Shown one piece after another: positions 14,915 to 30,243 of a stretch of 34,992 nucleotides of DNA. The notes beneath the pieces were generated by a model. That model searched no databases. It saw only the letters and a list, made by a program, of their open reading frames with translations, and was not told where the DNA came from. Every line of letters begins with the position of its first letter. Position 1 is the stretch's first letter. A program made the translations under genes and the position numbers. This stretch comes from a virus (lineage: Duplodnaviria > Heunggongvirae > Uroviricota > Caudoviricetes), in IMG/VR virus record IMGVR_UViG_2663763256_000001; one strand, given 5' to 3'.

Positions 14915-15185
14915 AATGTTACCGTAATATGTGAGTATCCATCGACTAGACACTAAGCAAAAAAGCTCCCGAAGGAGCCTTCATTTTCACTTTCTTAAAT
15001 CTAACGACAGACGGCTAACATTTAAGTATTGTGAAATATTATCAAATGTAATCATCATTGATTTACAAAAGATACATTTTGCCCCGAAAGGATTCCTGTC
15101 AGAAACATCAAAAGATGATGTTCTATACTGAGAACCATGGCAACACGGGCATCTAAAGTGAATATGGTTTGTAATATTTTCTACC

Positions 15186-15398
15186 TCAAAGTGCCACAAC
15201 ATGAACAGCCGCGGGGCCTTTAGGTCCGTTCTCAATACCAAATTCGACTTCCTGATTCTCAGTTAACGTTTTGAAATCGTTGCTCTGAATAGCTGAGAAA
15301 TGGACAAACACATCTTTGCTACCATCTTTCGGCGTGATGAAACCAAAACCTTTTTCAGGGTTAAACCATTTCACTAAACCAGTCATTTTGTTAGACAT
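15186..15398 (-). CDS. cspI: cold-shock protein, CspA family (CspI-like)
   Basis: [38 protein letters not shown] carries the cold-shock domain RNP motifs. AAGG Shine-Dalgarno; long AT-rich 5' region upstream, typical of csp genes. Confidence 0.85.
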
Positions 15399-15761
15399 CA
15401 TTATTACCTTTTGAAGAAGTTAGCCCTTGGGCAGAATGGTCCGAAAAAAAATATCAGAGAGAAAAACCAACAAGGAAATCTCAAGAGGTACAAATAATAA
15501 AATTATAACAATGACTGCTTCAGATAATTTTGTAACAAACCAGAACACCATTAACGCATGATTAACCAACCATAGCAAGGATTACTTTTGTAAAGAAAAA
15601 CACACGAATGAAACAATAGCTTTATTTATTAATAAAACGTGTCATTCTGTCTAATGACCTTTTATCTTACCCTTAAGATTTCAAGGATTTTGACTCATGG
15701 AAGAGTCCTTTTTATTTAAATTTCACATTCAGCGCTAAAAATAATCCGATTTAATATTAAT

Positions 15762-18789: not shown

Positions 18790-18824
18790 AAATCAATATA
18801 AACAGCCCCTCCGGAGAGGGGCTG
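18790..18824 (-). terminator. strong intrinsic terminator
   Basis: Perfect 9-bp stem CAGCCCCTC-(CGGA)-GAGGGGCTG. T-rich tract (TTTATATTGATTTT) follows on the - strand. Confidence 0.6.
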
Positions 18825-19215
18825 GAGAGTGGCGCTATGTGCCATTGCATGGTGCCGGGTGCCTCCCGGTGAATTCAGTACCAGCACCTGAATCCGCGAT
18901 TATCCCATATACCTACTCGCTGATTGCCCCTCCGCACAGGGGGATTCACCATGCCAGTTTCTTTTAACAAACCCCCCGCAAACCAGACAACAGTCAACCG
19001 CCTGAATTGTGAAGTATTTAAAAATTTCTCCCGCTAACTGATACCCGGCTAACAGTCTGGTGTTTTCTTTTTCAGCAACGGGAAAGCAACAACCACCACA
19101 CTCGCCACCAGCACACCGTCAGCCAGCACTGACATTATCCGGCTGCTGCAATGCCATTCACAAAAACAGTAAGCAATCACTTTTTACCGTAACAGGTGAT
19201 AATCCAGATATGTAT

Positions 19216-19679: not shown

Positions 19680-19756
19680 TGGCGCGCTGTACTGGATTCG
19701 AACCAGTGACCGATTGCTTAGAAGGCAATTGCTCTGTCCGGCTGAGCTAACAACGC
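19680..19756 (-). tRNA. tRNA-Arg (anticodon UCU)
   Basis: The - strand reads GCGTTGT-TA-GCTC..GAGC-A-ATTGC-CTTCTAA-GCAAT-..-ACTGG-TTCGAAT-CCAGT-ACAGCGC-G-CCA. Cloverleaf with 7-bp acceptor stem, GTTCGAATC T-loop and encoded CCA. Confidence 0.85.
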
Positions 19757-19786
19757 TGAATACCGATAATGGACCGCCATCGGGGA

Positions 19787-19799
19787 CCCCCCCCCCCCC
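19787..19799. repeat. 13-nt homopolymeric C tract (G13 on the - strand)
   Basis: GGGGA followed by 13 C, in the spacer between the two tRNA genes. Confidence 0.9.
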
Positions 19800-19860
19800 G
19801 CACCAACAACCCTGTTATCGTGTCGTCTGCTCTTCCTGATAAGCTCATGGCGGTTTGTGA

Positions 19861-19936
19861 TGGTGGCCCTTGCTGGATTTGAACCAGCGACCTGGCGATT
19901 ATGAGTCGCTCGCTCTCACCACTGAGCTAAAGGACC
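19861..19936 (-). tRNA. tRNA with CAU anticodon (Ile2-lysidine type or Met; ileZ-like position)
   Basis: The - strand reads GGTCCTT-TA-GCTCAGTGGTGAGAGC-G-AGCGA-CTCATAA-TCGCC-AGGTC-GCTGG-TTCAAAT-CCAGC-AAGGGCC-A-CCA. Good cloverleaf. Confidence 0.8.
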
Positions 19937-22335: not shown

Positions 22336-22614
22336 TTACCTCCAGATGCGTTGCTGGAATGTGTGGGACGGACGCGGCGGGCGTTCGGAGTAAGGCAATC
22401 TGACTGAGATTATCCAGTGACGGTAGTCGAGGCTAAGGGCTTTTTTAACCTCGTATCCGCGCCTGCGGTAACACTGAATTATCCATTCAGCCTGCTCTTC
22501 AGTGCATGGTGGATGCTGGAACCAGTCCGATTTGAATGCATGAAAACGCCGTCCGCACCTGCTGGCAAAGACGGCAGAATCATCAGAATTGTGTAATTTG
22601 GTATCGTGCGCCAT
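22336..22614 (-). CDS. hypothetical nin-region protein
   Basis: ORF starting MAHDTKLHNSDDSAV. Stop abuts the DUF968 start. The track ORF extends to 22725 without support. Confidence 0.4.
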   Translation of the reverse strand: MAHDTKLHNSDDSAVFASRCGRRFHAFKSDWFQHPPCTEEQAEWIIQCYRRRGYEVKKALSLDYRHWIISVRLPYSERPPRPSHTFQQRIWR

Positions 22615-22879
22615 CGGTTGTCTCTGCTGGCGCAGCAGGTGCCAGTTGTTCAGGCTGGCGTATAAAGTATAAATAAACTGGTTCCAGTGTAAAGCCCCTA
22701 CATTAATGGAATAAAAGTCAAACAACAGATTGTTGGGATAAACACAACACTTATTATTAAAAGCGATTAGATAAATTAAATTTTAATGTTATGCAATTTT
22801 ACCAGATCACCATAACATCTCGTTTGAAACCACCGAAACAACAACCATATCAATATTGATTATGTTAAAGTGAGTAAAT

Positions 22880-22966
22880 ATGGAAAACAACAAATCTGCA
22901 CATTACGCTCCTTTTTTATCTGTGATACTTTTTGTTTTATGCTGTGTGTGGGCATTATTTTTATAA
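22880..22966 (+). CDS. candidate small hydrophobic peptide (28 aa)
   Basis: ATG...TAA ORF encoding MENNKSAHYAPFLSVILFVLCCVWALFL, a single predicted TM helix. Convergent with hok. Weak RBS. Confidence 0.25.
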   Translation: MENNKSAHYAPFLSVILFVLCCVWALFL

Positions 22967-22980
22967 AAATATTTACAGAT

Positions 22981-23002
22981 AAAATAAACCCGCCGAAGCG
23001 GG
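22981..23002 (-). terminator. intrinsic terminator of the hok transcript
   Basis: On the - strand: CCCGC-TTCG-GCGGG followed by TTTATTTT. Confidence 0.6.
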
Positions 23003-23072
23003 TTAAGTGCGGGTGCATTGAGGATGCCTGACACATCAGAGGTGGCGAGGGATTTCTCCCTCGCCAAGTCTC

Positions 23073-23228
23073 TTACTCCTCAGGTTCGTAGACTGTGAAG
23101 ACAGCGACCTCCGTCTGGCCGGTTCGGATTCGTACCTCGCAGAGGTCTTTCCTCGTTACCAGTGCCGTCACTATGACGGTTAAACAGATGACGATCAGGG
23201 CGATTAACATCGCCTTTTGCTGCTTCAT
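23073..23228 (-). CDS. hokD: Hok-family type I toxin
   Basis: Hand translation gives MKQQKAMLIALIVICLTVIVTALVTRKDLCEVRIRTGQTEVAVFTVYEPEE (51 aa), an almost exact match to recalled Hok/HokD. AAGGAGAAG RBS. Below the 60-aa cutoff of the ORF track. Confidence 0.85.
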   Translation of the reverse strand: MKQQKAMLIALIVICLTVIVTALVTRKDLCEVRIRTGQTEVAVFTVYEPEE

Positions 23229-23485
23229 AGCCTGCTTCTCCTTGACCTTTCGGTCCGTAAGAGGCTAATCTCTATGTGTCGCATAGATATGGCCTCAGAT
23301 TAATGTTAAACGTCTTGCAGGACGCGTAATGTTACCTGGGGCTTTTCTCTATCTGCCGTTGGTGTTCATGCCCGAGGCAGATAGCCTCAAGCACCCGCAG
23401 TCATTCTACTTAACTAAGATTTCCCCGCAAACCGTTTTTGTCCAGCACAATAAATATCCAACTAAACCAATGGAGTTCGCTGTAT

Positions 23486-23665
23486 TTACCGCCAGTATTC
23501 AATGCACATGACCGCCATGAACACCCCTAAAAAAAGGGCATTTATATATCCAAATATTAATATCAAAACATCAACTTTTTCCATATACCTTGCTGTGAAG
23601 ATGATGGGCATACATGATACGAACAACCAGAACGCAACAAACAAAAACTGCAATGCGTTTTTCAT
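23486..23665 (-). CDS. small two-helix membrane protein, function unknown
   Basis: 59 aa (MKNALQFLFVAFWLFVSCMPIIF...LILIFGYINALFLGVFMAV) with strong AGGAGG Shine-Dalgarno 5 nt upstream. AT-rich. Confidence 0.55.
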   Translation of the reverse strand: MKNALQFLFVAFWLFVSCMPIIFTARYMEKVDVLILIFGYINALFLGVFMAVMCIEYWR

Positions 23666-24648: not shown

Positions 24649-24981
24649 TTATTCAGTTTTGGATTTTGTCACCCTGCGTATCCACGCTTTCCCGTTACGC
24701 TCAATCTGAATTAGCTTTTCTATATTTTTTCGCCTTTCCCGTTCCTCCTGGCGCAAGAGCCTTACATCATCTGCCAGTCTGGTTTCTCTTTTCGCCACAG
24801 AGAGCATCCAGTCAAATGGCTCCACAACTGCACCGCAGATTTTACAGCGGACCTGACGCTCTTTTTCGTCAACCCGGACAGAAGCGTGATGGCAATATGG
24901 TCTTTCCGATGGCTCATAAAGAAAATTAACCTGATTACGAGGGTCATCCTCTTTTATCGGAAATAAAACGATATTGCTTAA
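24649..24981 (-). pseudogene. 3' fragment of a nin-region gene disrupted by IS5; its 5' remnant with RBS and ATG is at 26181-26204
   Basis: The reading frame continues unbroken into the IS5 left end. After removing IS5 and one TTAA copy, the gene reads AAAGGAGAGGAGC-ATG GAA ATA AAA CCA GAG GAT TAG TTA AGC AAT ATC... = MEIKPED-amber-LSNIVLFPIKEDD... Contains C-x-H...C-x-x-C motifs. Confidence 0.6.
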
Positions 24982-26176
<1,195 letters not shown>

Positions 26177-26261
26177 TTAACTAATCCTCTGGTTTTATTT
26201 CCATGCTCCTCTCCTTTGATGCGAATGCCAGCGGCAATTGAAGCCTGATAGCTAATTTCAC

Positions 26262-30185: not shown

Positions 30186-30243
30186 TTTCTGGTGACGTTT
30201 GGCGGTATCAGTTTTACTCCGTGACTGCTCTGCCGCCCTTTTT
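30186..30243 (+). ncRNA. dicF: DicF small RNA
   Basis: TTTCTGGTGACGTTTGGCGGTATCAGTTTTACTCCGTGACTGCTCTGCCGCCC followed by TTTTT matches the recalled 53-nt DicF sequence. Lies between the ydfC and dicB homologs, as in Qin. Confidence 0.75.

Follow-up and report, generated by a model that had tools for sequence, protein, structure and literature searches.

We describe here a locus in the nin region of a Qin-like lambdoid prophage of Escherichia coli, contained in IMG/VR record IMGVR_UViG_2663763256_000001 (Duplodnaviria; Heunggongvirae; Uroviricota; Caudoviricetes), a stretch of 34,992 nucleotides (nt) that is hereafter called the window and to which all coordinates refer unless another record is named. 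Our results make it highly likely that two independent units lie next to each other at this locus: a complete hok/sok cassette and a separate module that carries a 28-codon gene for a small hydrophobic peptide. The 28-codon gene is the only new element, and hok/sok is its neighbour rather than its partner.

The 28-codon gene

The small gene and the sequence preceding it are as follows:
22880–22966, plus strand: 28-codon gene for a small hydrophobic peptide, MENNKSAHYAPFLSVILFVLCCVWALFL; a conserved open reading frame (ORF)
22867–22874, plus strand: Shine–Dalgarno-like sequence AAAGUGAG, which is AAGGUGAG or AAGGUGGU in other clades and lies 5–7 nt before the ATG

A first-pass annotation, made from the sequence alone, had reported this ORF for a single-helix peptide of 28 amino acids (aa) and had kept a chance ORF as one option. 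The ORF lies at the reported coordinates, and its hydropathy fits the single-helix description: the first 11 residues have a mean Kyte–Doolittle value of −1.4 and the last 17 one of +2.9. The chance option fails on the conservation of the ORF, on an excess of synonymous changes and on the lack of any stop or indel in 210 readable copies (a set in which some contigs are included twice). All 210 copies have an ATG and exactly 28 codons, and they comprise 13 peptide variants and 15 nucleotide alleles. The ORF stays intact in copies whose flanks are only 36–53% identical, and in clearly decayed prophages. Along a minimum spanning tree of the 15 alleles there are 37 changes, distributed 5/13/19 over the three codon positions (p 0.018); 17 of them (46%) are synonymous, against 20% expected (p 4e-4), and none creates a stop codon, which ∼6.6% of random single changes would do. 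This frame is the only one of six that is open in all 15 alleles. An alignment to the most distant clade has 80% identity and no gaps within the ORF, while the leader (53%) and the DNA after the stop (36%) are both gapped. The Shine–Dalgarno sequence and the ATG are retained in all clades, with AAGGUG weakened to AAAGUG in the clade of the window.

The ORF is thus conserved and constrained at the protein level. It is very probably a real gene whose peptide has a polar head of 11 residues and a hydrophobic tail of 17. From it the prophage most likely makes a small protein of the inner membrane, which we infer to be expressed, to reside in the membrane and to have a function. A truncated remnant of a longer gene was considered and rejected: neither the stop nor the length differs between the three clades or between cargo contexts.

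Several observations weigh against a translated gene: (i) the Shine–Dalgarno sequence has weakened to AAAGUGAG in the clade of the window; (ii) the coding statistics are based on only 37 substitutions in 15 alleles; (iii) the peptide is absent from an exact look-up in ∼15 billion public proteins, and a literature search with its sequence string found no paper; (iv) the gene never appears in a gene-caller annotation; (v) Escherichia and Shigella are the only genera that have it in a set of 185,579 species representatives; and (vi) a consensus promoter for the small gene, sought in the conserved block at 22745–22800, could not be assigned because this AT-rich DNA offers several 8-of-12 options. 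Furthermore, some of the conservation could serve a role at the DNA or RNA level. An alternative reading is that the ORF is untranslated, that its conservation reflects a nucleic-acid function (a cargo recombination boundary, transcription signals or an RNA element), and that the frame is incidental. The right edge of the module falls at the stop codon of the ORF and the module flanks a slot for exchangeable cargo; two other islands of the module are conserved without coding; and the degenerate Shine–Dalgarno sequence and a peptide recorded by nobody, in protein look-up or literature, are also in line with this reading. Against it stand the concentration of changes at third codon positions, the synonymous surplus, the absence of stops, the lack of indels between two flanks that both have them, the one frame open in 15 of 15 alleles, and an ATG and Shine–Dalgarno spacing kept in all clades. 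We therefore regard an untranslated ORF as unlikely.

A mosaic module at the edge of a cargo slot

The gene belongs to a mosaic unit with the following features:
22631–22967 (337 bp): mosaic unit with the 28-codon gene; it has the same edges against loci with different neighbours
22632–22697: conserved island 1, which holds the TTTACA-N16-TATACT site
22666–22693, minus strand: promoter-like TTTACA-N16-TATACT, 10/12 match, facing the nin/Q genes; putative function
22745–22800: non-coding block that is conserved and may hold a promoter or regulatory region; its identity to the most distant clade is 89%, versus 47–53% for its neighbours
22786–22818, plus strand: inverted repeat ATGTTATG-N17-CATAACAT, a weak candidate in which the arms are kept and the loop diverges
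22859–22886, minus strand: promoter-like TTTCCA-N16-CATAAT, 9/12 match, antisense to the 5′ end of the small gene

The left edge of the module (22631) coincides with a break in homology to strain K-12, and the right edge (22967), as seen in the most distant clade, is one base past the stop codon. With only the flank of the ORF as query, matches were found in 1177 of 5426 complete E. coli genomes (the set used for all genome counts), i.e. ∼22% of them, at identities from 100% to ∼74%; none of the matches listed coincides with an annotated feature. The small gene also occurs on at least 194 viral contigs.

The first-pass annotation had combined the 28-aa ORF with hok as parts of one toxin module. 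This pairing does not stand, because the ORF sits in its own 337-bp unit and is also found beside other cargo without hok. In the loci compared (L003, L006, L007, L008/L012 and L009–L011), the cargo to the right of the module is hok/sok, a hok disrupted by the insertion sequence (IS) IS421, the S8 anti-phage peptidase IteS, a DUF1971 gene, or an ATP-dependent nuclease plus a cytosine methyltransferase in place of the hok leader. To the left of the module are nin genes of the DUF968 or DUF1367 type. In the window, to judge from these sequence comparisons, hok/sok is cargo at a module-edged slot. A literature search for a lambdoid defence hotspot or a small gene of the nin region returned nothing specific, and the K-12 analogue that was sought, ylcH upstream of ybcN in DLP12, is co-directional and unrelated. 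In one cargo context a NACHT protein lies beyond hok. Flanked by the replication genes on one side and the nin/Q genes on the other, the slot appears to be a place for variable cargo or defence genes.

The hexamers and spacing of the leftward TTTACA-N16-TATACT site are identical in 73 of 73 distinct module sequences, whichever nin/Q gene set follows. If the site were a constitutive promoter, its place upstream of Q would be unexpected for a prophage. The block at 22745–22800 contains invariant stretches in the 73 distinct sequences, and the sole change in the arms of the inverted repeat converts a G-C pair to G-U, as read on the plus strand.

Possible functions of the small peptide

Searches with the 28-aa peptide gave no significant match in Pfam, PHROGs (best expect (E) value 0.11), NCBIfam (best E value 0.031, far below the cut-off) or Rfam. 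Peptides of the Ibs, ShoB, TisB, DinQ, ZorO and YohP type resemble it in size class, in having one hydrophobic helix, in their stand-alone genes with a long leader and in being missed by annotation. It differs from them in that (i) there is no sequence similarity in Pfam, PHROGs or NCBIfam; (ii) it comes without an identified antisense or antitoxin RNA; and (iii) its helix reaches the very C-terminus and lacks the polar tail of those small toxins and membrane proteins.

This likeness raises the question of whether the peptide is a type I toxin repressed by an antisense RNA from the promoter-like site at 22886–22859 (−), so that a second toxin–antitoxin pair would stand back to back with hok/sok. 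The small size, the hydrophobic C-terminal helix, the lack of any annotation and a leader of ∼90–130 nt would suit a toxin. The one feature that hints at an antitoxin as in type I systems is the antisense TTTCCA-N16-CATAAT: a −10-like hexamer is present at this site in each clade (CATAAT, TATGAT, TATTCT or AATAAT), even though the site falls in the least conserved part of the module. In a possible 7-bp anti-Shine–Dalgarno helix (22819–22825 with 22869–22876), all changes in two clades preserve pairing. However, this helix is broken in a third clade; the conservation of the antisense −35 says little, since it overlaps codons 1–3, which constrain it anyway; and promoter-like sites in the region are no more numerous than in shuffled sequences. 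Neither a terminator nor a conserved structure of an antisense RNA could be detected: consensus folding of the small-gene leader on both strands is weak (−4 to −12 kcal/mol), with few compensatory pairs that lie mostly in a variable loop, and Rfam has no match. The peptide resembles no known toxin family (Pfam, NCBIfam, PHROGs and Rfam), and its gene is intact in 210 of 210 copies, including those in decayed prophages, which a harmless or useful peptide would explain at least equally well. Because neither strand offers a solid RNA structure, we regard a toxin as a minority hypothesis and a rather improbable one.

A broader proposal is somewhat more credible but still tentative: the 337-bp module may encode an unrecognised small membrane protein of the prophage, maybe a toxin or a modulator of the host membrane, possibly under antisense control, and may, together with its invariant leftward promoter, mark the conserved edge of a lambdoid cargo or defence slot in which hok/sok would be one interchangeable cargo.

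The hok/sok cassette

By its sequence, the other half of the locus is an ordinary, complete cassette of a kind that is already annotated. It spans ∼22980–23441, and promoter, mRNA, mok, Sok promoter, Sok and terminator could all be located:
22977–23004, minus strand: hok intrinsic terminator; stem at 23004–22987 of 7 bp with 5 G-C pairs, 4-nt loop, then TATTTTATCT
22980–23396, minus strand: full-length hok mRNA, ∼417–419 nt; 5′ end from the Rfam match, 3′ end from the terminator
23011–23023, minus strand: fbi CCUCAAUGCACCC, complementary to tac; 12 bp with one bulge in the minimum free energy (MFE) fold
23043–23064, minus strand: stable hairpin GGCGAGGGAGAAAUCCCUCGCC of the 3′ untranslated region (UTR), present in the predicted folds of full-length and shortened RNA
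23225–23284, minus strand: mok-like leader ORF MRHIEISLLRTERSRRSRL, 19 codons and a UGA that overlaps the hok AUG (AUGA)
23243–23238, minus strand: hok Shine–Dalgarno sequence AAGGAG, 8 nt 5′ of the hok ATG
23242–23271, plus strand: Sok promoter, −35 TTGACC (23242–23247), 18-nt spacer, −10 TAATCT (23266–23271); position equivalent to that upstream of sokW in phage 933W
23261–23265, minus strand: dcb GCCUC, predicted to pair with the mok Shine–Dalgarno sequence in shortened mRNA
∼23278–23347, plus strand: Sok antisense RNA, ∼70 nt, predicted ends; homologous to the annotated sokW misc_RNA of 933W (L002 1777–1847)
23293–23296, minus strand: mok Shine–Dalgarno sequence GAGG, 8 nt 5′ of the mok ATG and within the Sok-complementary region
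23338–23344, minus strand: ucb (anti-Shine–Dalgarno box) AAGCCCC, whose predicted partner is the mok Shine–Dalgarno region in full-length mRNA and tac in shortened mRNA
23385–23396, minus strand: tac, 5′ GGGUGCUUGAGG, whose predicted partner is fbi in full-length mRNA and ucb after 3′ shortening
23403–23430, minus strand: putative hok promoter, −35 TTGCGG (23430–23425), 16-nt spacer, −10 TAGAAT (23408–23403), +1 at ∼23396

The hok ORF (23073–23228, minus strand) encodes 51 aa (MKQQKAMLIALIVICLTVIVTALVTRKDLCEVRIRTGQTEVAVFTVYEPEE) and matches PF01848 with an E value of 2.6e-22 and 78.6 bits (cut-off 22). The NCBI Prokaryotic Genome Annotation Pipeline (PGAP) names the protein HokD, and its exact sequence stands under HokD on at least 1000 public contigs. 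Much of the first-pass annotation of this half is borne out: the 51-aa gene lies at the reported coordinates, the ribosome-binding site is AAGGAG 8 nt upstream, the terminator lies at 23004–22977, and relBE-like genes, said to be missing upstream of hok, are likewise missing from the PGAP annotation of the identical region of strain KKa014. The Tyr47 codon of hok (23088–23091, minus strand) reads as being in a UACG context; UACG is the motif edited by TadA in hokB, where it converts Tyr to Cys, and similar editing has been reported for hokC, hokD and hokE (bioRxiv 10.1101/2025.08.07.668861).

A promoter of its own for hok and a Sok-type antisense RNA had been predicted as well, the latter without delimitation, and a covariance-model search had been proposed for both RNAs. 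Rfam model RF01794, which is named 'sok' yet is modelled on the hok-strand leader, matches the whole leader with 100.8 bits (gathering score 59) over model positions 1–157 of 157, from 23396 to 23226 (−), ending at the hok AUG. At permissive E values it is the only real Rfam match in 22600–23500; Phe_leader and rsmX (∼21–22 bits, E values 0.07–0.7) are chance matches. The expected hok promoter can be read as TTGCGG-N16-TAGAAT, with its −10 located 6 nt upstream of the first base matched by RF01794. Homology to the hokW cassette of 933W begins at ∼23441 and hence includes this promoter. Sok can be placed at ∼23278–23347 (+) from its homology to sokW and from its fold, a single long hairpin with a U-rich tail (−26.1 kcal/mol, z = −3.9), and it is complementary to the Shine–Dalgarno sequence and start codon of mok.

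The full-length hok mRNA folds with an MFE of −174.9 kcal/mol (z = −10.6 versus shuffled sequences), and its 5′ end is paired with its 3′ end. For an RNA shortened at its 3′ end so that fbi is lost, folding instead predicts the tac/ucb stem and the stem between the mok Shine–Dalgarno sequence and dcb. Among 147 cassettes with full flanks, which were used for all cassette comparisons, fbi is kept in 121, and variation is limited to the bulged base.

Initiation of mok would use GAGG-N8-ATG (23296–23282). The 19-codon form that ends on the hok AUG occurs in 34 of the 147 cassettes, while 102 have an in-frame Mok–Hok of 70 aa; relative to this majority form, small indels shift the mok ATG (23284) out of the hok frame. 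The Sok promoter is TTGACC-N18-TAATCT in 36 cassettes and TTGCCT-N17-TAACCT in 107. The short-mok allele always occurs with the TTGACC type (34/147), which indicates a lineage rather than a one-off lesion. For plasmid R1 it has been shown that ribosomes need to translate mok no further than the region where hok is initiated, and that hok is preceded by 19 codons of mok (PMC9841398). From this rule and the same number of codons, we infer that the short mok is still coupled to hok, probably by termination–reinitiation.

Some results speak against an intact, working cassette. Both the hok and Sok promoters fall under the threshold of a simple promoter scanner, for which reason the hok promoter is termed putative, and matches of Hok to the NCBIfam Hok models are below their curated cut-offs. 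No compensatory change between tac and fbi was found within the 147 hokD-type cassettes because both segments are invariant, and support for this pairing is therefore thermodynamic and by analogy; plasmid relatives found by blastn are of the same hokD type. In addition, the chromosomal hok loci tested in earlier work are reported to have shown no post-segregational killing.

A rival view is that the cassette is a decayed, non-functional copy whose frameshifted 19-codon mok uncouples hok, as in the inactive chromosomal hok loci of K-12. The mok frame of the window has indeed been changed by small indels from the form found in 102 of 147 cassettes, the chromosomal hok loci tested earlier reportedly did not kill, and relatives are often disrupted by IS elements. 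Against this, 34 of 147 cassettes carry the short-mok allele, and in them the mok Shine–Dalgarno sequence, its ATG and hok are all intact and are accompanied by a matching near-consensus Sok −35; the mok stop falls exactly on the hok AUG (AUGA overlap); R1 needs mok translation only to the hok initiation region (PMC9841398); and all structural elements are intact. Decay is thus a poor fit, and we prefer a complete cassette with a short mok that probably remains coupled.

Two kinds of altered relatives were seen. In strain BroCaecum-55 (L006 1849–2004) the hok ATG is ATA and the in-frame mok ATG is intact, so that Hok would be possible only as a 70-aa Mok–Hok fusion; PGAP still calls a 51-aa hokD there. 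IS421 lies in the hok 3′ UTR of several chromosomal and plasmid relatives (L007, 1889–3001; L216, 815–1160; L218, 781–1226), which recall the IS-disrupted hok loci of K-12.

Proposed working of the cassette and known relatives

By analogy with the R1 paradigm, the cassette would work as follows. A weak promoter would yield the ∼417-nt hok mRNA, which at full length would be translationally silent, with tac paired with fbi and the mok Shine–Dalgarno sequence held by ucb. Slow trimming of the 3′ end would strip fbi, upon which tac would pair with ucb and the mok start would become accessible. Ribosomes on the 19-codon mok would halt at the UGA overlapping the hok AUG and so open hok or re-initiate on it, and Hok would then harm the inner membrane. 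A stronger promoter on the other strand would give rise to the ∼70-nt Sok. Being complementary to the mok Shine–Dalgarno sequence and start, Sok would block translation of mok and therefore that of hok, and the duplex would be marked for RNase III. The elements, the predicted folds and membership of this class of cassette are observed in the window; processing, coupling, toxicity and any part in prophage maintenance or phage defence would follow if the R1 paradigm applies.

The stretch shared between unrelated contexts runs from promoter to terminator (∼22986–23441). Some part of a 1,021-nt query around the locus matches 4741 of the 5426 E. coli genomes, and the query also matches 103 phage records; P1-like and IncY plasmids carry the cassette as well. 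Loci of comparable kind are the hokD-type loci of E. coli prophages and of P1-like and IncY plasmids, and hok has been described as enriched in prophages (bioRxiv 10.1101/2025.08.07.668861).

Phage 933W (AF125520), in which hokW, mokW and sokW are annotated, shares ∼91% nucleotide identity with the cassette of the window over 444 nt from promoter to fbi, although its cassette occupies a different place in the phage genome. It has the same tac, ucb, fbi and Sok hairpin, and its 51-aa Hok differs from that of the window at the C-terminal end only. By contrast, mokW is an in-frame ORF of 70 aa, whereas mok of the window is the out-of-frame 19-codon ORF ending at the hok AUG, and the Sok promoter of the 933W type is TTGCCT-N17-TAACCT instead of TTGACC-N18-TAATCT.

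The hokD (relF) locus of K-12 Qin lies in the same prophage family and neighbourhood (ydfU/DUF968 to the left, dicF/dicB further on), and its coding region and 3′ UTR are 97% identical to the window over 22986–23242. Homology stops 14 nt before the hok ATG (23242), and K-12 lacks the hok promoter, tac, ucb, mok and sok because relBE replaces them; K-12 Qin also lacks the small-ORF module. On this sequence comparison, the window holds the complete form of a cassette that K-12 keeps only as a truncated hokD.

The R1 hok/sok locus is too diverged from the cassette of the window for blastn but has the same architecture, and the predicted switch from tac/fbi and mok Shine–Dalgarno/ucb pairing to tac/ucb and mok Shine–Dalgarno/dcb pairing is also found in R1 (PMC9841398). 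R1 likewise has 19 codons of mok ahead of hok and a Sok that overlaps the region where mok is initiated. Its mok, however, runs through hok in another frame (70 aa), while that of the window stops at the hok AUG. Unlike the locus of the window, R1 hok/sok is plasmid-borne, with proven post-segregational killing.

Genomic setting

The 1,021 nt around the locus are 100% identical to strain KKa014, and an IS5 insertion at ∼24982–26176 is the sole difference between the window and the prophage of that strain. The KKa014 gene order, as annotated by PGAP, is:
Minus strand: replication-region genes, hokD, a 92-aa hypothetical protein, DUF968, RusA, antiterminator Q, two tRNAs and lysis genes
Far side: dicA-like repressors, ydfABC, DicF and dicB

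The IS5 copy (24982–26176) has a 330-aa InsH-type transposase ORF (25116–26108, minus strand) and terminal inverted repeats at 24973–24997 and 26161–26185. It splits a prophage gene, and the otherwise identical KKa014 prophage is without IS5. A seeming misplacement of DicF relative to dicB was traced to coordinates shifted by the IS5 insertion and dismissed as an artefact.

Elsewhere in the window, Rfam matches comprise the STnc100 small RNA adjoining iraM (18794–18983, minus strand; 131.7 bits), a cspA-type thermoregulator 5′ UTR (15140–15556, minus strand; 109.8 bits), DicF (30187–30238, plus strand; 76.7 bits) and two tRNAs (19683–19936, minus strand), which PGAP names tRNA-Arg and tRNA-Ile in the identical KKa014 region. 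A 59-aa ORF (MKNALQFLFVAFWLFVSC..., 23486–23665, minus strand) with two hydrophobic helices closely precedes the hok promoter and is not part of the shared cassette; it has no family match, and some genomes annotate a hypothetical protein under matches that span the stretch.

Implications

The hok/sok part of the locus is nothing new in kind: the annotation of 933W already includes it, and PGAP has a name for its toxin. Its short-mok allele nevertheless constitutes a recurrent natural test of the published rule that mok has to be translated only as far as hok. The 28-codon gene is conserved, apparently coding, present in about one in five E. coli genomes and missed by every annotation pipeline, and it borders a slot that carries anti-phage genes in related prophages. 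The module is therefore a handy landmark for locating cargo in lambdoid prophages, and the peptide, if expressed, would be one more of the poorly charted small membrane proteins of prophages.

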